From contig JAUXSN010000039.1 in the NCBI GenBank assembly GCA_030679895.1, positions 34,128-98,127 on the forward strand: DNA of 64,000 nt, written 5' to 3'. This document shows, in pieces, positions 4,456 through 59,350 of the stretch (positions are counted from its first letter, which is position 1; each line of letters opens with the position of its first letter). The notes under the pieces were generated by a model, which was not told where the DNA came from, made no database searches, and saw only the letters and a list, made by a program, of their open reading frames with translations. The position numbers were made by a program, and so were the translations under genes. Origin of the DNA: Candidatus Moraniibacteriota bacterium (GTDB lineage: Bacteria > Patescibacteriota > Minisyncoccia > Moranbacterales > UBA11712).

Positions 4456-5336
4456 ATTTGAACCATCGGCTCTCAAATTCAACTACTGTTGATTCCGTAA
4501 CTCAAGGTTTAGTAGGCGCGGATTATATCATTGATCCAATTAATGAAAATAACATTAAAATGTTGTATCCAACGAAAGAAAATGGACGCGTCTGGAGCGC
4601 AAAATGGTCAAATGGAAATAAGGAGACCATTGCAAGCGGAGAACGCGATCCTTTTGATTCGGAGTTTATTGCGCGGGGAAACGGCGATGTCTCTATCGAT
4701 GGTGACGGTGTAGCGCAACTTCAAGGAGATTCTCCAAGAATGTATATCTACGATCCTGCCAAGGATAAAAAATGGAATAATGTTGAAGTTACCGTTTATG
4801 CCAAACGCATATCGGAAACGGAGTCGGTGAGCTACCAGGGGATAGTAATCGGTGCGAGAAGCGAACATCAGGATGCAACCCTAAAAAAACCCTGTCTCGG
4901 CGCGACATATTATGGAAGATTGCTCTATGATGGTCGGGCAGTTTTTCAAAAAGAAGTGATTCATGAAGGCGCATATAGCACCAATAAGCCATCAGAAAAT
5001 AATAAAGCGAAATGGAATACCCCCAATGGAACAATGCCAAAAAATGAGTGGATTGGAGTCAAATTTATTGTAAAAACTAACCCAGACGGAAAGTCAGTAA
5101 AACTAGAGCTCTATAGGGATTTAACAGATGGAAAAGATGGAGGAACATGGGAAAAAGTTGCTGAATATAATGATAACGGGAAATGGTCGCAAACAAACTC
5201 TGGCGCTGATGTCAAAGAAAAGTGCGGTTATCAGGCAAATAAAGTACTCTTAAAATCTGGCACCTCGGTATTTATTAGAAATGATAAAATAAAAAATGCG
5301 GAATATAAGTTATTCAGTATTAGAGAAATAGATTAG
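4341..5336 (+). CDS. Hypothetical membrane-anchored/secreted protein
   Basis: There is an N-terminal TM segment (IYLFFLFVGIIFGSSYFIFIFL) and no recognisable catalytic motif. The called start overlaps the upstream gene by 115 nt, and the next in-frame ATG (4560) lies after the TM segment, so the start is uncertain. Confidence 0.5.
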   Translation: MGISNKFRKKPGSRLKIYLFFLFVGIIFGSSYFIFIFLNLNHRLSNSTTVDSVTQGLVGADYIIDPINENNIKMLYPTKENGRVWSAKWSNGNKETIASGERDPFDSEFIARGNGDVSIDGDGVAQLQGDSPRMYIYDPAKDKKWNNVEVTVYAKRISETESVSYQGIVIGARSEHQDATLKKPCLGATYYGRLLYDGRAVFQKEVIHEGAYSTNKPSENNKAKWNTPNGTMPKNEWIGVKFIVKTNPDGKSVKLELYRDLTDGKDGGTWEKVAEYNDNGKWSQTNSGADVKEKCGYQANKVLLKSGTSVFIRNDKIKNAEYKLFSIREID

Positions 5337-5362
5337 TTTTTCTAAAGCTTCGCCTTAATGAC

Positions 5363-6504: not shown

Positions 6505-7113
6505 ATGAAAAATATAATTCGAAGCTTGGTAGTTGTCTTTGCCGTTGCGGCGATTGCCGGAAGCGCGACATATGCGCTTTATCACGCGGAAGGCACAGTT
6601 TCTGGCGTAACCGCTTCAGCCAGCGATATGGATCTGAAGATAGATTCAAATCCGGATCCGAGTGGGTATAATTGGTCGGATGGCTTTGCCGTCACCAACG
6701 CGCAACTTGAAGCGCTGGGGCTTGACAGCTTGAAGCCGGGCAGTCATGGCCAGCAGATATTCGACATCAAAAATGTTGCAGGCGATGTTGATGGCGCTGC
6801 CTCAATAAAGTTGCATAGGACGTCTGCATGGAGCGATCTTGTGAACAACCTAAGGTTCACTGTATATTTCGATCCTGATAACAACGGAGCCTTTGGATCA
6901 GCTCTTGTGTCAGGCACTCTGGGTGAATTCGAGGGCAATACTTATACTCTCGGTCAGATCGTAGGTACTGCAACCCAAGAAAATACAGGTGGCGTTTTGG
7001 GAAAAAATGCTAGTGTCAAAATAGAATGGGACATTCCGAGTACTGCCGGAAACGAGATAATGGGAGACAGCGTCACATTTGACATCACTTTTGGTCTTGA
7101 TCAGACTCCATAA
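6505..7113 (+). CDS. TasA/camelysin-like secreted fibre subunit (paralog)
   Basis: MKNIIRSLVVVFAVAAIAGSATYALYHAEGTVSG is near-identical to the signal region of 5842. A strong RBS (aaaggaggtg) lies upstream. Confidence 0.65.
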   Translation: MKNIIRSLVVVFAVAAIAGSATYALYHAEGTVSGVTASASDMDLKIDSNPDPSGYNWSDGFAVTNAQLEALGLDSLKPGSHGQQIFDIKNVAGDVDGAASIKLHRTSAWSDLVNNLRFTVYFDPDNNGAFGSALVSGTLGEFEGNTYTLGQIVGTATQENTGGVLGKNASVKIEWDIPSTAGNEIMGDSVTFDITFGLDQTP

Positions 7114-7788: not shown

Positions 7789-9795
7789 ATGAAGCGAATA
7801 ATCAGAAAAAAATTCAGGAGGTTCTGGAGGTCGGTGATCAACAGGCGATTAGTAAAGTACGCCTCTCGTTTCGGTCTGGCCGTTTTCCTGCTGGCAATGG
7901 TTTTGAGTTTTGGAAAAATCCAGGGGACAAATTCTTTTTTCATGGACACGGCGACTGTGGCAGGAAATGAGATTTCAGCCGGATATTGGATTCCGGTTTT
8001 GACGATGACCGTTTCGCCAAAAAATCCCGATGGGCAGAACAATTTTTATGTTTCTCATCCCTGCGTGACACTTGAAGCGAAATTGGGAGGCTCTGTCGCG
8101 TCGCTTTCGGAAGTGGATATATTTTATGAATTCTCGAACGACGGCAATCCGGTTTCGGGCGGAACGAAATACGACGGAACCTGTGTTTCGATTCCCGACG
8201 GAAACCCGACTTATTTTCAGGCGATTGCCGTGAACAAATTGAATTCCGACTGGAAAAGCAATGTCGTGAATGATCAGTTCAAGGTTGACACGCAATGTCC
8301 GGTTGTTGAAATCACAAATCCTGACAGCGGTGACGATTTGAGCGGTTCGGTTGAAATCCGCGGCACTGTGACGGACGCCAATCCGCACCACTACTGGCTG
8401 GTGATCGAAAATTCATCCGGCGCGAAAGTCGCGGGTCCGGGAACGGTGAACGATGCGAATTCTTTCACGGACAAGAAATTTTTCGACTGGGACACGACGG
8501 CGGTTCTGGACGGAGATTATAAAATAAAGCTCGAAGCGCGCGACGCCGCGGGAAACAAATGCCCGAATCAGGCGCCGGTTCTTGCCGATCCGAATGATCC
8601 AAACGATTCAGTTGATTGGATTGATGTGACTGTGGCCAACACGCCGGTTGTTTCTGCCGGTGATGTGATCATCAATGAAGTGATGTGGATGGGAAGCTTT
8701 GCGCATCCACATGATGAATGGATTGAACTCAAGAATACAACCGGACATCCGATAAACGTGAAAAATTGGAATATCGAGGGAGCAGTTGAAGGAAGCGGCG
8801 GGCATCTCGAAATTGCCGGAAACACGGGACACGAAGGCGACGACATGATCATCCCCGCGCACGGATACTTTCTTATTGCAAACTATAACCGAGATTCATC
8901 GGATATAAATGTTGATGTGGATTTGGTGAAAACTAGTATAAGCCTCAATGATGAATATGACGACAACGGCCCGTTGGTTTTGAAAGATACTTCAGATCAA
9001 ACGATTGACGCGACTGCGGCGCCGACAGGACACAGTTGGCCGGCGGGCATTCATGGACTTGTCGTTCCCGGCGGGATATTGCATTGGTCAATGGAAAGAA
9101 ACAACACTCCGTCAAGCGGCTGGCACACCTGCGATCCTACGGCGATGACGCCAGCCCAATTTCTAACGATGAAAAGCTATTGGGATTGGGACGCCTTATT
9201 GTTCAACTGCGGCACGCCGGGGCATGCCAATCTTTCCAAAAACGATCCTTCCAAAAGTGACATTGAAGAATATTTCAATAAAAGTGAAATAAAAGAGGAT
9301 GTGGTTTTGGAGCCGCTTGAGAAAAGTGGAAATGATGGTGTTGAAGCGTTGAAAATAACGAAAAAAGTCCCGATAAAAGTTGTTGGCGCGCCGGATGTTG
9401 CGGAGGGCTTGAAATACAAAATCGACCAGCGGATAAAAAAAGTCAATCTTTCCGGAGATTTTCCGGACAAGGAAATAATCGTAGATTTAGCCAAACTGGG
9501 ACTCATTGAAAAAACCGGCGAGATCAAAATCAGGATCAGCGACCTCGATTTACCGGATGGTGTGGAAGTCGTTTCGCAGAAAGACAACGGGCTGGTGCTT
9601 TTGATTACGGTTGAAAAGCAAAAAGACAAGGTTGCGAAAGTCGCGAAGAAAAACAATAAGTCCGGAAAAAAGTCGAAGAAAAAAGGAAAAGCCGAGCTGA
9701 AACAGGCGGAGCAGGCCGCTCTTCCCGATAGTGGAAAAGAAAGCGGGAGCGGAGACGGCGATCCGAATAACAATAATAAAAATCCCATTACATGA
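7789..9795 (+). CDS. Large secreted protein with SipW-cognate-like signal region and a lamin-tail domain (LTD)
   Basis: An N-terminal TM is followed by GTNSFFMDTATVAGNEISAGYW, which resembles the TasA signal pattern. VIINEVMWMGS...DEWIELKNTTGHPINVKNWNIEG matches the LTD signature. The C-terminus is lysine-rich. Confidence 0.55.
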   Translation: MKRIIRKKFRRFWRSVINRRLVKYASRFGLAVFLLAMVLSFGKIQGTNSFFMDTATVAGNEISAGYWIPVLTMTVSPKNPDGQNNFYVSHPCVTLEAKLGGSVASLSEVDIFYEFSNDGNPVSGGTKYDGTCVSIPDGNPTYFQAIAVNKLNSDWKSNVVNDQFKVDTQCPVVEITNPDSGDDLSGSVEIRGTVTDANPHHYWLVIENSSGAKVAGPGTVNDANSFTDKKFFDWDTTAVLDGDYKIKLEARDAAGNKCPNQAPVLADPNDPNDSVDWIDVTVANTPVVSAGDVIINEVMWMGSFAHPHDEWIELKNTTGHPINVKNWNIEGAVEGSGGHLEIAGNTGHEGDDMIIPAHGYFLIANYNRDSSDINVDVDLVKTSISLNDEYDDNGPLVLKDTSDQTIDATAAPTGHSWPAGIHGLVVPGGILHWSMERNNTPSSGWHTCDPTAMTPAQFLTMKSYWDWDALLFNCGTPGHANLSKNDPSKSDIEEYFNKSEIKEDVVLEPLEKSGNDGVEALKITKKVPIKVVGAPDVAEGLKYKIDQRIKKVNLSGDFPDKEIIVDLAKLGLIEKTGEIKIRISDLDLPDGVEVVSQKDNGLVLLITVEKQKDKVAKVAKKNNKSGKKSKKKGKAELKQAEQAALPDSGKESGSGDGDPNNNNKNPIT

Positions 9796-33745: not shown

Positions 33746-35197
33746 ATGATTAAAAAATATTCTCAAAATCTCATCGAAACCTCAACCGCGATTTTCATTG
33801 TCGCGGCGGTTTCGATTTTTATTTTCGCCAATTTCATCGTCGGCTTCAGTTTGCCGCTCTATCTTTTCGCGGTCGCGTTCGGCTTTGTCCTTTCAGTCGT
33901 TTATCCAAGAAGCGGATTTTACGCCATTGTTTTTCTCACGGTTATTTTTGAAAGGTTTTTCACTCTAGTTCCGATATATTGGAACCGGGCAGAATACAAA
34001 ATATATCCGATCGACATCATTTTCGCCGGAGTGATACTGGGAATTATTTTTCAACTCATAAAAAACGGCCTGCCGAGAAAGCTGAAAATCGCTGATTATC
34101 TGGTCGCGGTGTTTATTTTTGCCGGCGCGGCTTATTTTATCGCCAGCGCATATCTGCTCCGGACGGACGCATCGATCGCCTTCAGCACGTTCAAAAATTA
34201 TTCTTTTTACGGACTTTTCTATTTTGTCGTCATATTCCTGTTCAGCGATAAAGAAAGACTCCTTAGACTTCTTAAGTTTTTTATGGCCGGCGCGGTTGTC
34301 GCGACAATCTTCATTTTCATCGGAATAATCCGCGGCGAAGGATTGTGGACCGGGTTCACCCCGCTTTCCACTCCAGGAACGCGCATTCTGGCTTTTCCGC
34401 ACGCTTTTTTCTTCACGATGGCCGTTCTGGTTTCGCTCGCTTGGATCGCTTTTCGAAAAGACAGCTATGCAACATTTCTCAAAATAATGATTCCGATCTG
34501 GGCAATCGGCATTGTCGGCTCCCTTATGCGCCATCTTTGGATAAGCCTTTTTGTCTCAATAATTTTTATCTTTTTTCTTCTGCCGAAGGAAAACAGAAAC
34601 CGGCTTAAAAAAATTATGTTCCATTACGCGTTGATCGGAGTCATCGCCATGATTTTTTTGTCATATTTGTCTTTTCTTTTTCCCGCCTCTGATTTTTCAA
34701 AAACTTTCGCGAGCGCAACAGGAATAACCGGGAAACGTTTTGTTTCCACGGTCCAGGTGACTTCCGATGAAAGTCTCAACTGGCGAAAATCCGTTTGGCA
34801 GAGCACCTGGCGGGAATATAAAGACAATTTGATTTTTGGCCTTGGATATGGAAAAAAAGTTTCGGTTGAGATCGGCACGAAATACAAAGATTTTGTTGAA
34901 ATCCGAAATATCCACAACTCGCTTCTCACTATTTTCATTCAAATGGGGCTCTGGAGCGCGCTTTTGTTCGCATCCCTCTTCTGGCTACTGGCAAAACCTC
35001 TTCTGATGAAAGTATCCCGCGCTTTTGACCCGTTTGATCTTCAGTTTCTTAAGATTGCCTTTTTAGCCATATTTTTGAATTATCTGATCGCGTTTCTGTT
35101 TCAGACATATCTCGAAACAAATCTTCTGGGAATATTTTTTTGGATAATTTTGGGCGGATTAGCCGTGTTAAATTCAAATACTAAAATCGAGTCTTAG
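33746..35197 (+). CDS. O-antigen ligase / polymerase family (Wzy-like) polytopic membrane protein
   Basis: The protein has ten or more TM helices, and NIHNSLLTIFIQMGLWSALLFASLFWLL resembles the Wzy_C signature. Confidence 0.6.
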   Translation: MIKKYSQNLIETSTAIFIVAAVSIFIFANFIVGFSLPLYLFAVAFGFVLSVVYPRSGFYAIVFLTVIFERFFTLVPIYWNRAEYKIYPIDIIFAGVILGIIFQLIKNGLPRKLKIADYLVAVFIFAGAAYFIASAYLLRTDASIAFSTFKNYSFYGLFYFVVIFLFSDKERLLRLLKFFMAGAVVATIFIFIGIIRGEGLWTGFTPLSTPGTRILAFPHAFFFTMAVLVSLAWIAFRKDSYATFLKIMIPIWAIGIVGSLMRHLWISLFVSIIFIFFLLPKENRNRLKKIMFHYALIGVIAMIFLSYLSFLFPASDFSKTFASATGITGKRFVSTVQVTSDESLNWRKSVWQSTWREYKDNLIFGLGYGKKVSVEIGTKYKDFVEIRNIHNSLLTIFIQMGLWSALLFASLFWLLAKPLLMKVSRAFDPFDLQFLKIAFLAIFLNYLIAFLFQTYLETNLLGIFFWIILGGLAVLNSNTKIES

Positions 35198-50488: not shown

Positions 50489-52450
50489 ATGTCTCACAAA
50501 ACAATCTACATTGATATAGACGAAGAGATAACTTCTGTTATCGACAGGATGAGGAAAGCCGAGGCCGGCGAGGTGATTATTGTCGCTCCCAAAAGAGCTT
50601 TGCTTTTGCAGAGCCTGGTTAATTTAAAACTGCTGAAGAAAGAAGCTGATCGTCGGAAAAGGCGTATTATGATTGTGACCCAGGACAAGATTGGAAAAAA
50701 ACTGATAGAAAAGGCGGGAATACTGGCTCATGGCAAAGTTGATGATTCGATGGCAGACAATGGCGAGACAGAAGAACCGGCGATAAAAGGAAAACAGCTG
50801 ATTAAAAATCAGGAATTGATTGAAAACATTGAAGGCGAGCAGGAAGAAGAACCTGTCGGGTCGGACAGCTATTTTGACGAACCCTTGAAAACGGAGGCGA
50901 GCCGGGAAGCTGCCAGTCCCGGAGAAGGATTGAAAAACAGCAATATTGACAAGATTCAATTTGAAATTCCCGCTTTTGAAAAAACAGAAAATATCCAATC
51001 CAAAAGCGCGAAAAGGGACAGCGCAAGAAAGGTAAAAGATCGCGGAAAACCTGATAAATCCGTGCAAATGTCGGATATTGTCGCCGGCTCCAAACCAAAA
51101 TCCAAAAGAAAAGAAGAAAATATCGTGGAAAAAAAAGATGAGGAAAATTATGAAACTGAAAAAACGCCTTTGGGATCCGGACAATTTTATAAAAAATCAG
51201 GCCATGATCCGCATTTCGAGAATCAAACGGAAAAGTTTTTCAGCGGAACCTCGATTATGAAGGAGACAGTTTCCCGCCGAAAAGCCGGAAAATTAAACGA
51301 AAGAAGGCTCAAAGGCAAAGTTGGCCGGTACTTTGTTTTTTTCGCCATAGCCATCGTTGTTTTGGGCGGCCTTGCTCTTGCGTACTATTACTTTCCGAAA
51401 GCGAAAATAACGCTTTATTTAAAGAGCCAGGTAAAAAGCAGTTCCGTTGATATCGAGGCGAGCCTTTCAGCGGCTGGAGTCAAAGGAGAAGAAGGAATAG
51501 CGCCGGCAAAACTGGAACAGCTGGAAAAAGAAAAAAAGGAAGAATTCAACGCCACGGGAAGCAAAAACGGCGGCGGGAAAGCAATCGGAAAAGTGGTAAT
51601 ATATAATGATTTTAGCGCGGATAACCAGCCCCTTGTCAGCACTACCCGCCTGGAAACGGCTGATGGGAAAATATTCAGAATCACCAAATCAATCATTGTT
51701 CCCGGAATGACAAAAGTTGGAACGGAAACGAAGTCCGGGGCAATCGAAGTTGATGTCGTGGCTGATAAAGCCGGGCGCGAATATAATATCGATCCGGCCG
51801 ATTTCAAAATACCGGGCTTTAAGGGCGGACCGAAATTTGATAAATTTTATGCCAGATCCGCGAAAGCCATGACTGGCGGATCAACCGGAGAAACACCACT
51901 TGTATCATCCCAAGATATCAGCCAGGCGAAAGAAAAAATAATCGCGGAGGCTAAAGAGGAAGCTATCCGGGATTTGAAACAAAGCCTTCCGGCCGAAAGA
52001 AAAATTTTTGATGATTCGGTGGTTGTGGAGCTGGAAAGCGCGGCTCCTTCAGCAGCCGCGGGAACGGAAACAGATAAGTTTTTTTATACCGTTAAAGTAA
52101 GAGCGAAAACCATTTCTTTTTCAGAAGATGATGTGAAAGAAATAATCAGAATGAAAACAGATGAAAATCGGGAAGGAACGATTAGTTTCAAAACCCCCCT
52201 GAATTACATGCTTTCGGAGGAAAATCTGGAAAAAGGATACGTGAAATTTGAAGTAAAAACGGATCTGGAAACAGCCGGTGACATTGATCTTGAAAATTTC
52301 AGGAAGGGAGTGCTGGGAAAGAATTCAGATGAAATAGCGTCTTTTGCCAAGGCGTACCCGGCCGTTTTGAAAGCAGACGTAAGCTTCTGGCCTTTTTTCA
52401 CCACTCGCGCGCCGATGAATGAAAAGAGGGTGGAAATTGAGATAAAATAG
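50489..52450 (+). CDS. Hypothetical bitopic membrane protein (cytoplasmic N-domain, K/E-rich linker, one TM, ~340-aa extracytoplasmic domain)
   Basis: TM at YFVFFAIAIVVLGGLALAYYYF. The last 54 nt of the gene are duplicated at 59237-59290. Confidence 0.45.
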   Translation: MSHKTIYIDIDEEITSVIDRMRKAEAGEVIIVAPKRALLLQSLVNLKLLKKEADRRKRRIMIVTQDKIGKKLIEKAGILAHGKVDDSMADNGETEEPAIKGKQLIKNQELIENIEGEQEEEPVGSDSYFDEPLKTEASREAASPGEGLKNSNIDKIQFEIPAFEKTENIQSKSAKRDSARKVKDRGKPDKSVQMSDIVAGSKPKSKRKEENIVEKKDEENYETEKTPLGSGQFYKKSGHDPHFENQTEKFFSGTSIMKETVSRRKAGKLNERRLKGKVGRYFVFFAIAIVVLGGLALAYYYFPKAKITLYLKSQVKSSSVDIEASLSAAGVKGEEGIAPAKLEQLEKEKKEEFNATGSKNGGGKAIGKVVIYNDFSADNQPLVSTTRLETADGKIFRITKSIIVPGMTKVGTETKSGAIEVDVVADKAGREYNIDPADFKIPGFKGGPKFDKFYARSAKAMTGGSTGETPLVSSQDISQAKEKIIAEAKEEAIRDLKQSLPAERKIFDDSVVVELESAAPSAAAGTETDKFFYTVKVRAKTISFSEDDVKEIIRMKTDENREGTISFKTPLNYMLSEENLEKGYVKFEVKTDLETAGDIDLENFRKGVLGKNSDEIASFAKAYPAVLKADVSFWPFFTTRAPMNEKRVEIEIK

Positions 52451-52460
52451 CGATTGGGGG
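52407..52460. repeat. Left copy of 54-bp direct repeat (gcgcgccgatgaaTgaaaagagggtggaaattgagataaaatagcgattggggg)
   Basis: Matches 59237-59290 at 53 of 54 positions and is co-linear with the 3' end (APMNEKRVEIEIK*) of gene 50489-52450. Confidence 0.85.
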
Positions 52461-52546
52461 GCTGGTTTTGCTCATCGCGATAAGCAGATAATTGCTTGTT
52501 TAATGATACTATAAAGTTATAGAAATCATCATTTTTAACGAAAAAT

Positions 52547-53572
52547 ATGAAAACTCAAGAAACAATCAAAAAAATCGAAGAATCGAGAGGGTCAAGAGTT
52601 GTAACCTATGTCACCAGCGATCGGCAAGGGCCGGTGAATGCCCGGGTGGCAATGGATATTATTCCAATTATCAGTAATCAACTGCGGAAAATTGGAAAGC
52701 AAGACAAGATTGATTTGGTGCTGTATAGCTCCGGCGGCGACACGATGGTGCCGTGGCGCTTGGTTTCTATGATCCGCGAGTATTGCGACCACTTTTCGGT
52801 TCTCGTGCCATATAAGGCTCACAGCGCCGCGACAATGATCGCTTTGGGTGCCGATGAAATAGTAATGAGCGATATGTCCGAACTCTCGCCGATTGATCCC
52901 TCAACCGCCAATGTTTTCAATCCCGTCGATCCACAAAATCCGCAAAACAGAATTCCGATCAGCGTGGAAGATGTTATGGCATATTTCGATCTGGCAAAAA
53001 ACAAATTCGGAATCAAAAGCGATGAGGAATTGACGGAAATATTCAAAAAATTTATCGACAGCAATCCTTCAATTCATCCTCTGGCTCTCGGAAATGTCAA
53101 TCGCACGCATAATCTGATCAAAATTCTCGCGAAGCGACTCTTGAAAAGCCATAAGGCGCCGATGAAAGAGGATGAGATTGAAAAAATAATTGAATTCTTA
53201 ACGGAAAAACTTTATTCACATCAATATTATATTGGTCGCAAAGAAGCTAAAGATGATCTTGGAATAAAGTCCGTTGTTTTCGCGGACAAAGAACTTTCTG
53301 ATCTGATGTCGGAACTTTATGAGGAATACAAACAAGAAATGAAAATGACAGAAATCTGGAATCCGGAAACAGAACTCGGCGAAAATCAGGTGATGAACAA
53401 GAAAGTTTACAAAATCGCTTATGTCGAGAATGCGGAAATCAGCAATTATTTTGAGGTAAATATGGAATTTAAGAAAGTTCAACAAAACGTTGCCCAGCAA
53501 ACTACAATAGGCCCAATAAATATCCCGCAGGAGCAAATTGTGTGGAGAATGATTGGGCAGGGGTGGAAATAA
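52547..53572 (+). CDS. ClpP/crotonase-fold serine protease of the SDH (serine dehydrogenase proteinase) / S49-like family
   Basis: EESRGSRVVTYVTSDRQG, LVLYSSGGDTMVPWRLVSMIRE, AHSAATMIALGADEIVM and LSPIDPS match the SDH_sah pattern (catalytic Ser in AHSAAT). Confidence 0.55.
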   Translation: MKTQETIKKIEESRGSRVVTYVTSDRQGPVNARVAMDIIPIISNQLRKIGKQDKIDLVLYSSGGDTMVPWRLVSMIREYCDHFSVLVPYKAHSAATMIALGADEIVMSDMSELSPIDPSTANVFNPVDPQNPQNRIPISVEDVMAYFDLAKNKFGIKSDEELTEIFKKFIDSNPSIHPLALGNVNRTHNLIKILAKRLLKSHKAPMKEDEIEKIIEFLTEKLYSHQYYIGRKEAKDDLGIKSVVFADKELSDLMSELYEEYKQEMKMTEIWNPETELGENQVMNKKVYKIAYVENAEISNYFEVNMEFKKVQQNVAQQTTIGPINIPQEQIVWRMIGQGWK

Positions 53573-53602
53573 AGGAAAAAGGGCTGGACAGAAAAAACGA
53601 GA

Positions 53603-53635
53603 GTGATATAATATCACTATATCACTATGATATCA
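53603..53635. promoter_or_regulatory. Tandem palindromes gtgatataatatcac and atgatatcat (shared TGATAT half-site) overlapping a TATAAT box
   Basis: A perfect 15-bp palindrome and a perfect 10-bp palindrome lie about 35 nt upstream of ATG 53671. They look like an operator overlapping the -10 region. Confidence 0.4.
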
Positions 53636-53670
53636 TGCGAAAATCCTCTAACAATTAACATTTTATATCT

Positions 53671-54144
53671 ATGAACTATAATTTTACTATCTATTCGGAC
53701 CAAGAAAAATTATCCACGACCTCTAATATAAGCAATGGCGGGTGGGTTAATCTTAATCTTGGATATCTGCCTATTTCCATTGGAGATCGCGTCGAAGCGG
53801 CTTATGTGGCTAAAGTCGAAATAAATACAAGCTCCACTTTGGATGATGACAACACCACAAATAATATCGGTAGTTATGAAAAAATCGAAAGTGCGTTATT
53901 AAATAACAGCAATACTTTTTTTGAGAACGATTTTTTCCCCAGCTTTGTATACGGAGTCAATTATTCTTGGGATAATAACAAGCTTCTAAATTTTGATTTA
54001 ACTGAGATCGAAAAAATAGATATTTCTTGTGCCAGCGATTTGCAAGATAGAGGCAATTATGTTCGTTTTATCCTTGGAAAAAGTAATAATTCTTTGCAAG
54101 CTGCTTTGAAGTTTTGTCGGATTCCTTTTTGGATTCATAAATAA
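53671..54144 (+). CDS. Hypothetical protein (island cargo)
   Basis: A 157-aa Asn-rich product from a coding region of about 30% GC. No motif recognised. Confidence 0.4.
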   Translation: MNYNFTIYSDQEKLSTTSNISNGGWVNLNLGYLPISIGDRVEAAYVAKVEINTSSTLDDDNTTNNIGSYEKIESALLNNSNTFFENDFFPSFVYGVNYSWDNNKLLNFDLTEIEKIDISCASDLQDRGNYVRFILGKSNNSLQAALKFCRIPFWIHK

Positions 54145-54161
54145 AATTAAAACATAAATAT

Positions 54162-54851
54162 ATGGAGCCTACAATTAAAAAAATACAAACGGCGATCTTT
54201 ATTAAGAATTTTCAGATTCAGAATGAGTATGAAAAATCTAATTTATTACTTGATTCAAAAGAAAAAATTGGTGATATTTTTGATGGTCAGCCAATCTTAA
54301 TTCCTGCACCAAACGAAATGCCGCCTGAAATTCCGAGGATTGTTTTAAATAGCGCTGATAATTTGTTTTCATGCAATATCGCTCTGAATCGAACTGATAT
54401 TTTTTTTAATTCTGCTAATAGCAAAGAGAAAGATGTAAATATCATATTGGAAAAACAAAAAACAAATTCCCTTAGAGTATTTGATTTTCTGAAAGAAAAA
54501 AACGTTATCATAAATAGAATTGGTTTCGTTGTTGATGTTGAGTATGCAATTGAAAATGCCATAGAATTTTTGAAGGCAGAATTCATTAATGAAAATAAGT
54601 TTGAAAGTCCCAAAGAACTTTCATTTAGATATAATAGAAGTAGTATTATCGAGGAAATTAATATTCCGATGAATAATTTGGTAACCGTGTCAGGAAAAAA
54701 TGATAGCAATGTTATTCAAATTCAACTTGATATCAATACTGTTTCCGAAATTATGAGTTCGAGTGATTTTTCAAAAGAATATTTTGATAAGATAATTACA
54801 TATTCGGAAAATAAAATAAATTCTATTATTAAAGAATTTCCTAATTTATAA
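54162..54851 (+). CDS. Hypothetical protein (island cargo)
   Basis: A 229-aa product from a gene tightly spaced with its neighbours. No motif recognised. Confidence 0.4.
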   Translation: MEPTIKKIQTAIFIKNFQIQNEYEKSNLLLDSKEKIGDIFDGQPILIPAPNEMPPEIPRIVLNSADNLFSCNIALNRTDIFFNSANSKEKDVNIILEKQKTNSLRVFDFLKEKNVIINRIGFVVDVEYAIENAIEFLKAEFINENKFESPKELSFRYNRSSIIEEINIPMNNLVTVSGKNDSNVIQIQLDINTVSEIMSSSDFSKEYFDKIITYSENKINSIIKEFPNL

Positions 54852-54853
54852 AA

Positions 54854-55366
54854 ATGGCTGATCAAAAAAAGAAGAGGAAAACTTCTACGGTTGAAGAAGA
54901 GCCATCTCCCTCACAGACTCCACAAGCAGAAGATTCTTTGCAGGTTTTAGCGTATGAATTAGCCAAGAAAACAAAGGAAGATTTTGACGAATTTAAAATA
55001 AACTCGAAAAGCCCAGAATGGGCTCAAAAATTAATAGATTCTCAACTCAGTTTGCAGAGGGTTATGAGAATTATTTTTTGGTTATTTTTTACTTTTTTAG
55101 TGTTTGTAATAATATCTTTTATTCTCTTTTCTGTGTTCGAGCTCAATAATCTACTTAATGTCCTGGAATATATTAGAGATAGTAAAAGAATGGAACAAAG
55201 CGATGAAATATTAAAACAGTATAATCAATTATTTTTTTATTGCAAAAGCATTACGACTTTCTTCGCATCAGTAATCGGAACTCTTGGAATTATTGGCTTT
55301 TTTATTTTTATATTCACAAAAGTTTCCGAAAATTTAACAAAAAATATTATTAATAAAGATAAATAG
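54854..55366 (+). CDS. Hypothetical two-TM membrane protein (island cargo)
   Basis: A charged N-terminal region is followed by TM helices at IIFWLFFTFLVFVIISFILFSVF and FFASVIGTLGIIGFFIFIF. The stop is adjacent to the mod start. Confidence 0.45.
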   Translation: MADQKKKRKTSTVEEEPSPSQTPQAEDSLQVLAYELAKKTKEDFDEFKINSKSPEWAQKLIDSQLSLQRVMRIIFWLFFTFLVFVIISFILFSVFELNNLLNVLEYIRDSKRMEQSDEILKQYNQLFFYCKSITTFFASVIGTLGIIGFFIFIFTKVSENLTKNIINKDK

Positions 55367-56934
55367 TGCCCACACTAAACTGGATCGGCAAGGAAGCGGT
55401 TGTGAATCATGACAAAGAAGTTCCGTTCAAGCTTCTTCGGAAAGTGAAATCCGCTTCGGTCGGTGAAAATTCGCAAAACTTGATTATGCACGGGGACAAT
55501 CTTGAGGCGCTGAAAGCCCTCATGCCTTTTTATGTTGAAAAAATAAAATGCATATACATTGATCCGCCATATAATACCGGAAATGAAAAATGGGTGTATA
55601 ACGATAAATTAAATTCTCCGAAAGTCAAAAAATGGATAGGAAAAGTCGTCGGGAATGAAAAAGAAGATTTGAGCAGGCATGATAAATGGTTATGCATGAT
55701 ATATCCACGATTAAAATTACTAAAGGATTTACTTAAAGAAGATGGGGTTATATTTATTTCCATTGATGACAATGAACACTGCAATCTTAAACACGCAATG
55801 GATGAAATCTTTGGGGAGGAAAATTTTGTTTGCAATATAATCTGGCAAAAAAAATACTCACCTCAAAATGATGCTAAATATTTCTCTAATATGCACGACT
55901 TTATAGTTGTTTACGCAAAAAAGAAAAATACCAACGGATACATTGGTGGTTGGACAAGAAATCTTATGAATAGAAGCGAGAAGCAAAATGCGAGATATAA
56001 AAATCTCGATGACGATCCAAGGGGAATTTGGAAACCAAGTGATTTATCAGTAAAAACATATTCAGCTTCGACGGATTATCCTATAAAAACTCCAAGCGGA
56101 AGAATTGTTAATCCACCGGCGGGATATTGTTGGCGCGTAACGAAAGAAAAGTTTGAAGAGATGGTAAAAGATAATCGCATATGGTTTGGAAAAGAAAAAA
56201 GCAATGTTCCATCAATCAAACGATTTTTATCTGATGTTCAGCAAGGAATCGTTCCAAGCACAATTTGGTTCAGAGAAGATGTCGGAGATAATCAAGAAGC
56301 AAGCAAAGAAATAAAAGAATTATTCAAGGATTCTGATTTTCCATTTGAAACACCGAAGCCAGTTCGACTGATAAAGCGTATCATTGAAATAGCCTCACAA
56401 AATGGCGATATTTTTCTAGATTCTTTCGCCGGCTCTGGCACAACCGGACACGCGGTTTTAGATTTGAATAAGGAAGACGGCGGGAATCGAAAATTTATTT
56501 TAGTTGAAATGGAGGATAAAGTCGCGAAAGATATTACTGCCGAAAGAGTGAAAAGAGCGATCAAGAAATACGATTATAAAGACGGTTTTGAATATTGTGA
56601 ATTGGACAAGCCGCTGTTCAACGAACACGGAAATATTGAAGGGACGTGCGACTTCAGCCAATTCGCGACCTATATTTATTTCACCGAAACGCAGACAAAC
56701 ATCGACAAGAAAAAAATCAAAGGCAATCTTGTCGGAGAATATAACAATGTTGATTATTATTTGATCTATAAAGGAAAAAATAAAAATGTTTTGGACAAAG
56801 CATTTTTGAAAAAAATAAAGAAAAGCGAGAATAAAAAAGTCATCTATGCAGATTGGTGTTCGATTGACGATGATATTTTGGAAAAATACAATATTGAGTT
56901 CAAGCAAATTCCTTATGAAGTAAAAGTTTATTAA
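55366..56934 (+). CDS. mod: Type III restriction-modification DNA methyltransferase (Mod; N6-adenine, beta-class)
   Basis: HGDNLEALKAL is followed by DPPYNTG (motif IV), and then DSFAGSGTTGHAV (motif I) lies C-terminal to it. This IV-then-I order is beta-class. A Res helicase-nuclease gene starts 2 nt downstream. Confidence 0.75.
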   Translation: MPTLNWIGKEAVVNHDKEVPFKLLRKVKSASVGENSQNLIMHGDNLEALKALMPFYVEKIKCIYIDPPYNTGNEKWVYNDKLNSPKVKKWIGKVVGNEKEDLSRHDKWLCMIYPRLKLLKDLLKEDGVIFISIDDNEHCNLKHAMDEIFGEENFVCNIIWQKKYSPQNDAKYFSNMHDFIVVYAKKKNTNGYIGGWTRNLMNRSEKQNARYKNLDDDPRGIWKPSDLSVKTYSASTDYPIKTPSGRIVNPPAGYCWRVTKEKFEEMVKDNRIWFGKEKSNVPSIKRFLSDVQQGIVPSTIWFREDVGDNQEASKEIKELFKDSDFPFETPKPVRLIKRIIEIASQNGDIFLDSFAGSGTTGHAVLDLNKEDGGNRKFILVEMEDKVAKDITAERVKRAIKKYDYKDGFEYCELDKPLFNEHGNIEGTCDFSQFATYIYFTETQTNIDKKKIKGNLVGEYNNVDYYLIYKGKNKNVLDKAFLKKIKKSENKKVIYADWCSIDDDILEKYNIEFKQIPYEVKVY

Positions 56935-56935
56935 T

Positions 56936-59197
56936 ATGCAACTAAAAAAATACCAGCAAAAAGCCATTGAGAATCTCAGCGAATATTTAAAAAGGGTCGA
57001 GGAAACCGATCCAAAGACGGCTTTTATTTATGCCGCTGAAATGCCCTATAATTCCGATTTTTACGGCGACGTTCCTTTTGTTTGCGTGAAAATTCCAACC
57101 GGCGGCGGAAAAACTTTAGTCGCTTGCCATGCGGTCGCGAAGATTATGCAGACAATTCTCAAAAACAAAATGGATCGGGGAATTGTGATGTGGTTTGTGC
57201 CGTCTGAAGCCATAAAAAGCCAAACACTTCGAAAACTGAAAGACAGAACCGATTGGCACAGAAAAGCTCTGGATGAAGCTTTTGAAAATAAAGTTAGAAT
57301 TTTTTCTAACGAAGAAGCCTTGCGAATCAGGAAAGAGGATGTTTCCGACAATATTTGCGTTGTCATTTCCAGCTTGGACGCTTTTCGGAAAGAAAAGCAG
57401 AAGCGGGGAAAATATAAAGTATATCAGGAAAACGGGTCGCTCTTGAGCCATTTTGAGAATATGAAAGATGATAAGGCTTTGGAAAAAGACGAGCAGAAAA
57501 CAGTCATCAATTCCTTGGCGAATGTTGTCCGAATGAGCAACCCTCTTGTTGTTCTTGATGAGGGCCAACGAGTGCAATCCTTCATTTCAATCGAATTTAT
57601 CAAAGACTTAAATCCAAGCTTTATTATTGAATACACTGCGACTCCTCGAAGCGGAAGCAATATTTTGGTGGATATTCATTCCGGAGAATTGAAAGAAGAA
57701 GAAATGGTGAAAATCCCGATAGTTCTTGAAAGTTCGCTGCATTGGGAGCAATCAACCGAGGCGGGAATAAAAAAACGAAAAGAGCTCGAAAAAATTGTCA
57801 AAAAAAGCGGGGAATATATCCGTCCGATTGCTCTTTTCCAAGCCGAGCAGGAAAAAGAAAGTGAAAAAAAGATAACCGTTGGAAAGATAAAAGAATTTTT
57901 GATGAAAGCAGGAATTCATGAAGACGAAATCGCAATCAAGACTGCGAGCCGCAATGATATTGAAAACGTCAATCTTTTCAGCAAAAAGTGCAAAATAAAA
58001 TATATTATTACCGTTAATGCTCTGGCAGAAGGTTGGGACTGCTCTTTTGCTTACATTTTGGTTTCGGTTGCCAATATTGGCTCAAAAATTGCTGTGGAGC
58101 AGATAATCGGCCGGATTATGCGGATGCCGAATGCCAAGAGAAAGAAAGACGAAGATTTGAACAGATGCTATGTTTTTGCTTCGGCTAGAAATTTCAACGA
58201 AGCAGCCAATCAAATAATTTCCGGACTTGAGAAAAATGGATACAGCCGCGGCGATGTTATCAACGCCAACCAAAAAAATCAGAAAGACGAGTTTGTGATC
58301 GAAAGAAGGGTTCGAAAAGATTTTTCTGTTCCTATTATGTCCCTTGAGGGCGATAAATTATCTTTCGAAGATTTGGTTGGTGAAAATTTTGAACTTGCCA
58401 AGCAAAACCATGAGTTTGAATTCACGACGCACTATGACAGCGATGGCAGGGCAATTATTGATATTAAAGATGACAAATGGGTGCGAGGCATTCAGCAAAA
58501 TTTGAATTTGAATTATGGCGACAAAAATTTCACGAAAGTCGAGCTGGTCAACTGGCTGGACCGAAAACTTCACTTCACAATTCTTGAGCAGAAAGACAAG
58601 AGGGCTTTTCTTGAAAAGGCTGTTGATTATCAGCTGAAAAGTTTCAGCGTTACGGATCTTTCGGTCAATCGCTATGTTTTTATGGCAAGATTGGACGAAG
58701 TAATTCACAATCTTTTGGAGGAATACGCCAAGAAAAGGTTTGATAAATTTATTGCCAATAAGAAAATTATCTTGAAAAATTTTGATAAATTTCCGGAAAA
58801 AATAATCATCAATCAGGAAATTCCGGAGGAATTCGGCAAAAACTATTATCAAAAGATTGATAAACTGAATAAAGAGGAATTATCTTTCATTGAGAGAATT
58901 GACCTTGATTCTTTGCCGAATGTAGAATTTTGGATCAGAAATCGTGAAAAGAAAGACCCTTTTTATATCCAAGGATGGCGAAAAGGAAAATTCTATCCCG
59001 ATTTTGTTGTACTCACGAAAAAAGGAAACATTGTGGCTTGCGAGTGGAAAGGCGAGGATAGAATCAGCAATGATGATACGAAATACAAGGAAGAAATCGG
59101 AAAAATTTGGGAAAGTTTAGGAAAAGGGAAAACGCATTTCTTTCTGGCGAACAATAAAAATGTCGAGGAAGTTTTGAGTGGGATAAAAAAATTGTAG
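56936..59197 (+). CDS. res: Type III restriction enzyme Res subunit (SF2 helicase + PD-(D/E)xK nuclease)
   Basis: The helicase motifs are IPTGGGKT (motif I), VLDEGQR (motif II) and QIIGRIMR (motif VI). The C-terminal region has IDLD...EFWIRN...YPDFVV...EWKGE, which is nuclease-like. Confidence 0.7.
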   Translation: MQLKKYQQKAIENLSEYLKRVEETDPKTAFIYAAEMPYNSDFYGDVPFVCVKIPTGGGKTLVACHAVAKIMQTILKNKMDRGIVMWFVPSEAIKSQTLRKLKDRTDWHRKALDEAFENKVRIFSNEEALRIRKEDVSDNICVVISSLDAFRKEKQKRGKYKVYQENGSLLSHFENMKDDKALEKDEQKTVINSLANVVRMSNPLVVLDEGQRVQSFISIEFIKDLNPSFIIEYTATPRSGSNILVDIHSGELKEEEMVKIPIVLESSLHWEQSTEAGIKKRKELEKIVKKSGEYIRPIALFQAEQEKESEKKITVGKIKEFLMKAGIHEDEIAIKTASRNDIENVNLFSKKCKIKYIITVNALAEGWDCSFAYILVSVANIGSKIAVEQIIGRIMRMPNAKRKKDEDLNRCYVFASARNFNEAANQIISGLEKNGYSRGDVINANQKNQKDEFVIERRVRKDFSVPIMSLEGDKLSFEDLVGENFELAKQNHEFEFTTHYDSDGRAIIDIKDDKWVRGIQQNLNLNYGDKNFTKVELVNWLDRKLHFTILEQKDKRAFLEKAVDYQLKSFSVTDLSVNRYVFMARLDEVIHNLLEEYAKKRFDKFIANKKIILKNFDKFPEKIIINQEIPEEFGKNYYQKIDKLNKEELSFIERIDLDSLPNVEFWIRNREKKDPFYIQGWRKGKFYPDFVVLTKKGNIVACEWKGEDRISNDDTKYKEEIGKIWESLGKGKTHFFLANNKNVEEVLSGIKKL

Positions 59198-59236: not shown

Positions 59237-59290
59237 GCGCGCCGATGAACGAAAAGAGGGTGGAAATTGAGATAAAATAGCGATTGGGGG
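59237..59290. repeat. Right copy of 54-bp direct repeat
   Basis: Identical to 52407-52460 except T to C at position 14. It retains the ...APMNEKRVEIEIK* coding remnant. Confidence 0.85.
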
Positions 59291-59320
59291 CGCTATTTCC
59301 GCCTGTTGGGATAGTCTGGG

Positions 59321-59350
59321 TTGACAAAAAAAAATAAAACCGTTAATATA
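59321..59350 (+). promoter_or_regulatory. Candidate sigma70-type promoter for the infA-rpmJ-rpsM operon (TTGACA-17-TAATAT)
   Basis: TTGACA at 59321-59326 and TAATAT at 59344-59349 are 17 nt apart. Confidence 0.45.

Follow-up and report, generated by a model that had tools for sequence, protein, structure and literature searches.

A repeat-bracketed island of Candidatus Moranbacteria combines a modular p229 and membrane-protein pair, a ClpP-fold protease and a Type III restriction-modification system

Do four co-oriented genes that lie directly upstream of a Type III restriction-modification (R-M) system in a Candidatus Moranbacteria (Patescibacteria, or candidate phyla radiation, CPR) metagenome-assembled genome contig act as one defence cassette, or are they separable pieces? 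We addressed this in a stretch of 64,000 nt (the window; positions 34,128 to 98,127 of contig JAUXSN010000039.1, assembly GCA_030679895.1), for which a sequence-only reading had proposed a four-gene cassette made up of an SDH-family protease with a ClpP fold, two soluble proteins and a two-helix membrane protein. The four plus-strand open reading frames (ORFs) were confirmed exactly where that reading had placed them, the protease at 52547..53572, p157 at 53671..54144, p229 at 54162..54851 and p170 at 54854..55366, and the exactly matching NCBI proteins bear locus tags Q8L09_03795 to _03805. The single cassette fared less well: p157 has one homologue, which lies in another context, p229 and its membrane partner occur without the protease, and the protease is followed by 22 gene families elsewhere and stands alone in E. 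coli prophages. We give about an even chance to the view that the locus is a composite island, in which a Rex-like p229-p170 pair is combined with R-M, an optional regulatory protease and the orphan p157.

The p229 and membrane-protein pair

p229 is a soluble protein of 229 residues whose AlphaFold2 (AF2) model, with a predicted local distance difference test (pLDDT) score of 91, consists of a duplicated β-α-β3-α unit; on this pseudo-dimeric model the fold is predicted to resemble that of the TATA-binding protein (TBP) or the guanidino kinases. The protein belongs to no named family and matched two PHROGs of function unassigned, in agreement with the sequence-only reading, which had been able to place no motif in p229 or p157. 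Searches returned 17 close homologues and, at E≤1e-3, 1,255 representative clusters (50% identity). Among 159 diverse members (median 24% identity) the conserved positions were Q9, F13, a Pro-rich loop (P44-R59), R77, D79, R119, N171, D190, N192 and T193, a pattern typical of a ligand-binding or catalytic site. A tblastn search with p229-family proteins against phage genomes gave no match, and DUF6941, considered as a 'half p229', was rejected when hidden Markov model (HMM) and HH comparisons gave no link.

Our comparison set held 80 metagenomic loci plus others, ~90 loci in total (L numbers below), in which genes were called by a simple longest-ORF heuristic, making the counts approximate, and transmembrane (TM) proteins by a Kyte-Doolittle threshold, which is crude. 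The next gene after p229 nearly always encoded a small membrane protein whose N-terminal tail is hydrophilic or coiled-coil (the window, L001, L005, L007, L008, L016, L027, L034-37, L075, L093, L096, L103 and L105). These partners fell into several families, namely TM3c/C26 with the motif ETLGIFVALFTFIS, a 139-aa one-helix protein (L016) and the p170 family (the window and L103), and HMM and HH comparisons detected no relation of the families to one another. p170 itself is a small membrane protein of 170 residues with two strongly hydrophobic segments (residues ~72-95 and ~132-155; hydropathy peaks 2.7-3.0), which bears out the earlier two-TM call, and its N-terminal tail of 70 residues is charged (12 K/R, 13 D/E). 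A p170 homologue with 37% identity follows p229 in L103, p170 was unrelated to the TM3c, C9 and C26 membrane families that occupy its slot elsewhere, and HMM and HH comparisons linked neither p157 nor p170 to other gene families in the 90 loci.

The pair was found in settings of very different kinds. It sits between mreC and mreD in L103, followed by an MmeI-type R-M system and with no protease, occurs without a protease in L008, and in L010 is part of a prophage, where tail genes and lysis genes flank it. It was also present in 23 records of ColE1-type plasmids, 2.8-3.0 kb in size, from E. coli, Salmonella, Klebsiella and Shigella. The other annotated genes there are for replication, Rop or Mob functions, a VbhA antitoxin or small hypothetical ORFs, and besides replication and mobilisation genes the p229 pair is apparently the sole cargo of these ~3-kb enterobacterial plasmids. 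In the two plasmids that we examined the two genes overlap, the second starting at the stop of the first. These two, L110 (NZ_CP041118, 3005 bp) and L111 (NZ_CP055028, 2845 bp), encode a two-helix membrane partner, and the membrane-protein ORF of L110 is not listed in the PLSDB gene table. At least four kinds of R-M directly flank the pair: Type III, methyltransferase plus PD-(D/E)XK, MmeI/Eco57I, and D12/MutH-like. The p229 and membrane-protein pair is a self-contained, autonomous and widespread unit.

The order protease, p229, small membrane protein recurs in ~11 distinct loci. In two CPR loci, L007 and L109, the neighbour of p229 is a proteasome-like Ntn-hydrolase (PF00227 at 24-26 bits, cut-off 22.4) instead of the SDH protease; L109 also holds the closest p229 relative (71% identity). 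This replacement by a non-homologous protease argues for a real link between protease and p229, and is the strongest reason to think that the pair, where a protease accompanies it, works together with that protease.

Distant p229 homologues (27% identity) at L003 8001-9793 and L009 5983-7731 are followed by soluble proteins of 205-216 residues and proteins of ~141 residues, without a membrane protein, and L003 has a Fic-domain gene upstream. This arrangement may represent a different effector type for the p229 sensor family.

The protease and its changing neighbours

The first island gene encodes a cytoplasmic serine protease of 341 residues. It scored 56.9 bits against Pfam SDH_protease (PF01972; cut-off 31.3), with residues 2-123 alone aligning well, and 68.4 bits against the NCBIfam equivalog NF047768 (cut-off 250), and by these scores it belongs to the Pfam SDH family and falls outside the NCBI equivalog. 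Its predicted fold is nearest to ClpP, SppA and NfeD, with a model that is poor for residues 112-231, and together with the Pfam score this upholds the earlier SDH/ClpP-fold call. Residues 1-235 are mostly invariant across 42 homologues, as are S93 (motif HSAAT), D117 and H177, which occur in Ser-Asp-His order and constitute a putative catalytic triad assigned from motif position alone. The C-terminus is predicted to carry an extra region of ~140 residues ending in a β-meander, and the protein lacks a hydrophobic or TM segment (maximum 19-aa hydropathy 1.04).

Searches with the protease identified 2,490 homologues, of which the best 119 (query aside) were 72-96% identical and mostly from Moranbacteria and Parcubacteria; over more than 100 homologues identity was 72-89%. 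Seven distant matches were all that phage genomes yielded, IMG/VR scans gave no protease relative and one marginal relative of p229, and PDB sequence searches gave no match for the protease, the p229 profile or p157. Lambdoid prophages or phage-plasmids of E. coli carry a lone SDH-family protease with 39% identity (L099 2229-3224, L107 3501-4496), placed between antiterminator Q and holin and encoded on the opposite strand. Of 5,426 complete E. coli genomes, 47 have it; the Q-holin position is a classic moron or defence slot, and the gene there is a convenient experimental model.

What follows the protease in the comparison set is highly variable. Across more than 90 loci nucleotide similarity covers the protease ORF exactly (median 52557-53573) and drops to zero right after its stop codon. 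In 49 non-redundant loci the next gene was co-oriented 48 times, at a median gap of 10.5 nt, and these next genes fell into 22 mutually unrelated families. A small membrane protein was encoded within the next three genes in 39 of the 49, versus 9 of 31 for the three genes upstream (Fisher p = 1.5e-5). The association of protease and small TM protein that the sequence-only reading had seen thus recurs (39/49 loci, and ~11 with p229), but its fixed four-gene unit does not. A DNA methyltransferase cluster occurred near the protease in 20 of the 32 loci having ≥4 kb downstream, with genes for Res-type helicases or other nucleases often coming next, and the other neighbours in dozens of loci included Phd/ParE, Fic/Doc, AbiEii, PIN, NYN and Bro-N genes. 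Insertion sites also varied (ftsK|rpoC, polysaccharide genes, beside dnaK). In L014 the protease, Mod and Res are 82%, 59% and 70% identical to those of the window and the intervening genes are unrelated.

In L047, 37 nt from the 5' part of the protease ORF recur (5308-5344 versus 7046-7082) ahead of a three-gene module that ends in a PIN-domain gene, a module that three other loci carry behind a full protease; the 37-nt copy looks like what is left of a second protease gene and suggests tandem units of protease plus module recombining through the protease gene. In L016, and likewise in L017, a 61-aa gene, the protease, a p229 homologue and the 139-aa membrane protein are bracketed exactly by a perfect, AT-rich direct repeat of 27 nt (6606-6632 / 9575-9601), and the bracketed segment may be a mobile three-gene unit. 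Flanking repeats sought in other loci gave this one clean case and no general pattern. The third gene after the protease in L045-L049 (e.g., L048 2163-2813) encodes a 216-residue protein that had no Pfam or PADLOC match, and its motifs NGHGSDD and AISCRSA are reminiscent of the caspase/CHAT His-Cys dyad. Several differing small membrane proteins downstream of the protease (L001 8689-9567, L005 7298-8209, L084 5549-5935 and L039 3595-4017) share a C-terminal Cys-x(7-10)-Cys motif, e.g., FKDCIWYNGLSNCLK, which may be an extracytoplasmic disulfide loop; p170 is without it.

The gene between the protease and p229 encodes p157, a soluble orphan of 157 residues without motif, Pfam, PADLOC, NCBIfam or PHROG family, or PDB match. 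Beyond itself it has one homologue (L108; 88% nucleotide identity), with a different upstream context. In the codon comparison of the two, 106 codons were identical, 21 differed synonymously and 22 non-synonymously, and this pattern indicates purifying selection and a real, lineage-specific gene. The slot itself is variable, and in L105 it holds an unrelated 237-aa gene.

Insertion and control of the island

Two copies of a direct repeat of ~57 bp (52407..52463 and 59237..59294) enclose six genes, i.e., protease, p157, p229, p170, mod and res. The copies share a 40-nt identical core (52421-52460 = 59251-59290), for which 100 shuffles gave 0 matches, and differ by 1 mismatch and 1 indel over the ~57 nt. 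The left copy covers the final 44 nt of a 653-aa gene (stop at 52450) plus 13 nt, and the right copy starts 40 nt past the res stop, with the infA promoter and gene next. From these flanking repeats we conclude that all six genes arrived together as a single 6.8-kb insertion at the 3' end of a housekeeping gene, which delimits the island that the sequence-only reading had placed here. An FtsA-like gene and the 653-aa gene lie upstream of the insertion, and infA, rpsM, rpsK, rpsD, rpoA and rplQ lie downstream, with a promoter-like TTGACA-17-TAATAT at 59321-59349 on the infA side. Pfam and PADLOC found no recombinase or integrase among the six genes between the repeats, and there is no tRNA nearby. 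The 653-aa ORF (50489-52450), whose 3' end is the insertion target, begins 4 nt after the FtsA-like gene, has one hydrophobic segment and no Pfam family, and may encode a CPR-specific division protein.

Mod (55366..56934, plus strand) begins with a GTG that overlaps the p170 stop by 1 nt, and matched PADLOC MTase_III over its full length (residues 1-521; 1e-191) and Pfam N6_N4_Mtase (3e-43). Res (56936..59197, plus strand) has a helicase domain and a C-terminal PD...(E)xK motif (YPDFVV...ACEWKG, read from the translation), and matched PADLOC REase_III (3e-87) and Pfam ResIII. On these sequence matches the adjacent, co-oriented mod and res genes are a Type III R-M system, as had been assigned before.

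The genes had been described as tightly packed and as sharing the AT-richness of mod and res, and on both counts the protease stands apart. The gaps are 17 nt (p157-p229), 2 nt (p229-p170), a 1-nt overlap (p170-mod) and 1 nt (mod-res), so that the packing holds from p157 to res, but a 98-nt spacer with its own promoter-like site separates the protease from p157. GC content is 0.34 for p157, 0.27 for p229, 0.30 for p170, 0.36 for mod and 0.39 for res, the first three being still more AT-rich than mod and res, versus 0.418 for the protease, close to the window mean of 0.432.

The palindromic operator-like sites that had been noted ahead of the genes were found in both spacers. In the protease-p157 spacer (53573..53670, plus strand) a promoter-like TGGACA-16-TATAAT at 53585-53612, an 11/12 match with an extended -10, overlaps GTGATATAATATCAC (53603-53617), a perfect 7+1+7 palindrome of which 0.04 were expected by chance, and TGATATCA, also palindromic, comes next. 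The spacer before the protease (52464..52546, plus strand) holds the palindromes TGCTCATCGCGATAAGCA (52469-52486) and CTATAAAGTTATAG, the latter read directly from the sequence, the one at 52469-52486 being weaker than that at 53603-53617, and in many homologous loci this spacer has a conserved TTGAAA-17-TAAAAT-type promoter. The identical 15-nt GTGATATAATATCAC palindrome with extended -10 also occurs in L012 (6961-6975), 40 nt upstream of the protease gene, and variants of it are present in L014, L021 and L025; the copies in the window and L012 are either a shared island operator/promoter or the trace of a rearrangement.

Interpretation and known systems

The composite island that we favour would work around the pair. 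p229 would be a cytoplasmic sensor or regulator, probably binding a ligand or nucleic acid through its invariant Arg/Asp/Asn cluster, and p170, a two-helix membrane protein with a disordered charged tail, would be the probable effector. A phage-derived signal would cause p229 to release or activate p170, and the resulting membrane damage would abort the infection in the manner of RexA/RexB. Transcribed and translationally coupled with mod-res, the pair would therefore act as a second line behind restriction. The protease, which is a highly conserved mobile 'head' gene placed in Patescibacteria ahead of changing small soluble and membrane proteins, may be an optional regulator: it would set the trigger by processing or turning over either the soluble partners or the membrane proteins' unstructured tails, and it may be able to work alone as well; p157 would be a lineage-specific add-on. 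We infer this sensor/protease/effector logic. That the context is one of defence or mobile elements has good support: the insertion is repeat-flanked, R-M, toxin-antitoxin (TA) and abortive infection (Abi) genes are neighbours in dozens of loci, and the E. coli homologue occupies a prophage moron slot. The neighbourhood check named beforehand, which asked whether the homologues keep to housekeeping contexts, placed them amid R-M, TA and Abi genes instead.

A set of points weighs against this reading. Neither sequence nor profile comparison tied the proteins to any validated defence protein, and the small-plasmid cargo fits addiction or bacteriocin-like roles equally well as phage defence. The protease is dispensable for the p229 pair and combines with many unrelated genes, and its link to the pair could be mere island clustering. 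The gene and TM calls in the 90 comparison loci are crude, and these loci are biased to close protease homologues (71-86% identity). In a bolder form, which we consider unlikely, Patescibacteria would possess a new, modular kind of immune locus defined by the SDH protease at its centre: this near-invariant ClpP-fold enzyme would serve interchangeable sensor and membrane-effector cassettes and be wired to R-M. p229 would be a new sensor of ligand-binding or enzymatic type, possibly guanidino-kinase-like and marking targets for the protease as McsB does for ClpCP, and the pair a widespread, unnamed anti-phage system ranging from CPR to E. coli plasmids.

The same island might hold mere neighbours without coupling, the protease being a stand-alone exclusion gene and p229-p170 a TA-like addiction module that stabilises the island or plasmid. 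The lone protease in its prophage slot, the 22 unrelated families that follow the gene, the nucleotide homology that stops exactly at its stop codon, and small plasmids whose annotated genes of known function are otherwise for replication, mobilisation or an antitoxin would all fit this account. However, the next gene is co-oriented in 48 of 49 loci at a ~10-nt gap, membrane proteins are enriched downstream and not upstream, a second protease type has been recruited beside p229, and high-copy ColE1-type plasmids rarely need addiction modules, and we hold complete independence to be rather doubtful. An obligate four-gene system, with p157 and p229 as sensors, the SDH protease as transducer and p170 as killer, would agree with co-orientation on one inserted island, with the ~11 loci of protease-p229-TM order and with the extra gene that L105 carries in the p157 slot. 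It is very unlikely, given that p157's one homologue stands in another context, that p229 with its TM partner exists without the protease and the protease without p229 or alone, and that a promoter-bearing spacer and a sharp GC change part the protease from p157.

The cassette proteins might also be accessories of R-M, either controlling restriction at establishment or upon DNA damage, for which the degradation of HsdR by ClpXP in restriction alleviation is a model, or tethering R-M to the membrane where DNA enters. Tight translational coupling to mod-res here and coupling to four other R-M kinds elsewhere, a methyltransferase near 20 of 32 protease loci, and a palindrome that overlaps the -10 of the operon promoter like controller-protein operators speak for such a role. 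Yet the pair and the protease both occur without R-M (plasmids, prophages, L005, L008 and L016), one conserved protease would hardly recognise such different R-M enzymes, and Pfam found no C-protein-like helix-turn-helix (HTH) in the window cassette, which leaves this account distinctly unlikely. Hardly credible, finally, is a housekeeping role in membrane-protein quality control of the SppA or NfeD/stomatin style, or a remnant of a phage head-maturation protease. The ClpP/SppA/NfeD-like fold and weak NCBIfam head-maturation protease matches (36 bits versus a cut-off of 120) point that way, but the block is inserted, repeat-flanked and patchily distributed, the protease is without a TM segment, its neighbours are TA, Abi and R-M genes, and neither the neighbours that were annotated or scanned with Pfam nor the recurrent neighbour clusters included an SPFH, stomatin, capsid, portal or terminase gene; we rejected both the prophage head-protease and the membrane quality-control readings on gene context.

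If the composite-island reading is correct, the pairing of a TBP-like-fold protein with a small membrane protein would be a new, widespread two-gene conflict system, directly testable in a model organism because the family is carried on ~3-kb plasmids of E. coli, Salmonella, Klebsiella and Shigella. To our knowledge Patescibacteria (CPR) have few recognised defences beyond R-M, and they would gain a common second-line module around a hyper-conserved ClpP-fold protease. The recurrent operon fusion with four R-M kinds would be a new case of layered or guarded immunity. Should the reading fail, the loci still record a recombination hotspot of the type 'conserved gene + hypervariable tail' in very small genomes.

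The sequence-only reading had recognised no named defence system in this combination, and none emerged from PADLOC v2, Pfam or NCBIfam. The protease, p157, p229 and p170 had no match in PADLOC-DB v2 at E≤0.1, and homologues and partners elsewhere, E. coli versions included, gave weak PADLOC matches only (E 3e-6 to 0.011), none of them naming these proteins. In the searchable literature we found nothing relevant on PF01972/SDH_sah, on DUF6941, on ClpP-like proteases in connection with defence or Patescibacteria, or on four RefSeq protein accessions. The cassette components appear to be undescribed, and the role of the protease as head of hypervariable defence-island operons is new to that literature.

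As to relatives of the protease, its core matches the PF01972 model of the SDH Clp-fold proteinases above threshold, its predicted fold is nearest to ClpP, SppA and NfeD, and the Ser, Asp and His of the putative triad are invariant among its homologues, but it scores far under the equivalog cut-off, has the ~140-aa C-terminal extra region and lacks a membrane anchor. The NfeD/STOPP protease-stomatin operon is not matched, with no SPFH match in the window cassette or the neighbours scanned and no hydrophobic segment in the protease. Bacterial gasdermin has an associated protease, and PrrC, a guard-type module, sits within the EcoprrI hsd genes; by analogy, the cassette would resemble them in having a protease beside a putative latent membrane protein and an abortive-type module embedded in R-M. 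Pfam, PADLOC and NCBIfam found no gasdermin, CHAT, trypsin-type or anticodon-nuclease domain in the cassette proteins, and p157, p229 and p170 have no Pfam domain, so that the locus does not count as a gasdermin-protease system. Unlike those systems, its protease has a ClpP fold, any cleavage is putative, and the R-M is Type III or of other kinds rather than Type I.

In layout the p229 pair matches RexA/RexB of phage lambda, in which a ~230-aa cytoplasmic protein is likewise followed at once by a small multi-helix membrane protein in a self-contained pair on mobile elements (prophage, small plasmids, islands). The p229 pair differs in being without sequence or profile similarity to RexA/RexB, in the predicted TBP-like duplicated α/β fold of p229, in drawing its membrane partners from several unrelated families, and in being co-transcribed with R-M, often with the protease ahead. 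The protease loci as a whole recall P2/P4 hotspots and integron-like arrays, in that a conserved gene is followed by changing content, homology breaks at the gene end, and a protease fragment (L047) suggests recombination through the conserved gene. No integrase or att-type sites were recognised in the protease loci, in contrast to those hotspots and integrons, and here the conserved gene is itself a protease that travels with its cassettes to different chromosomal sites.

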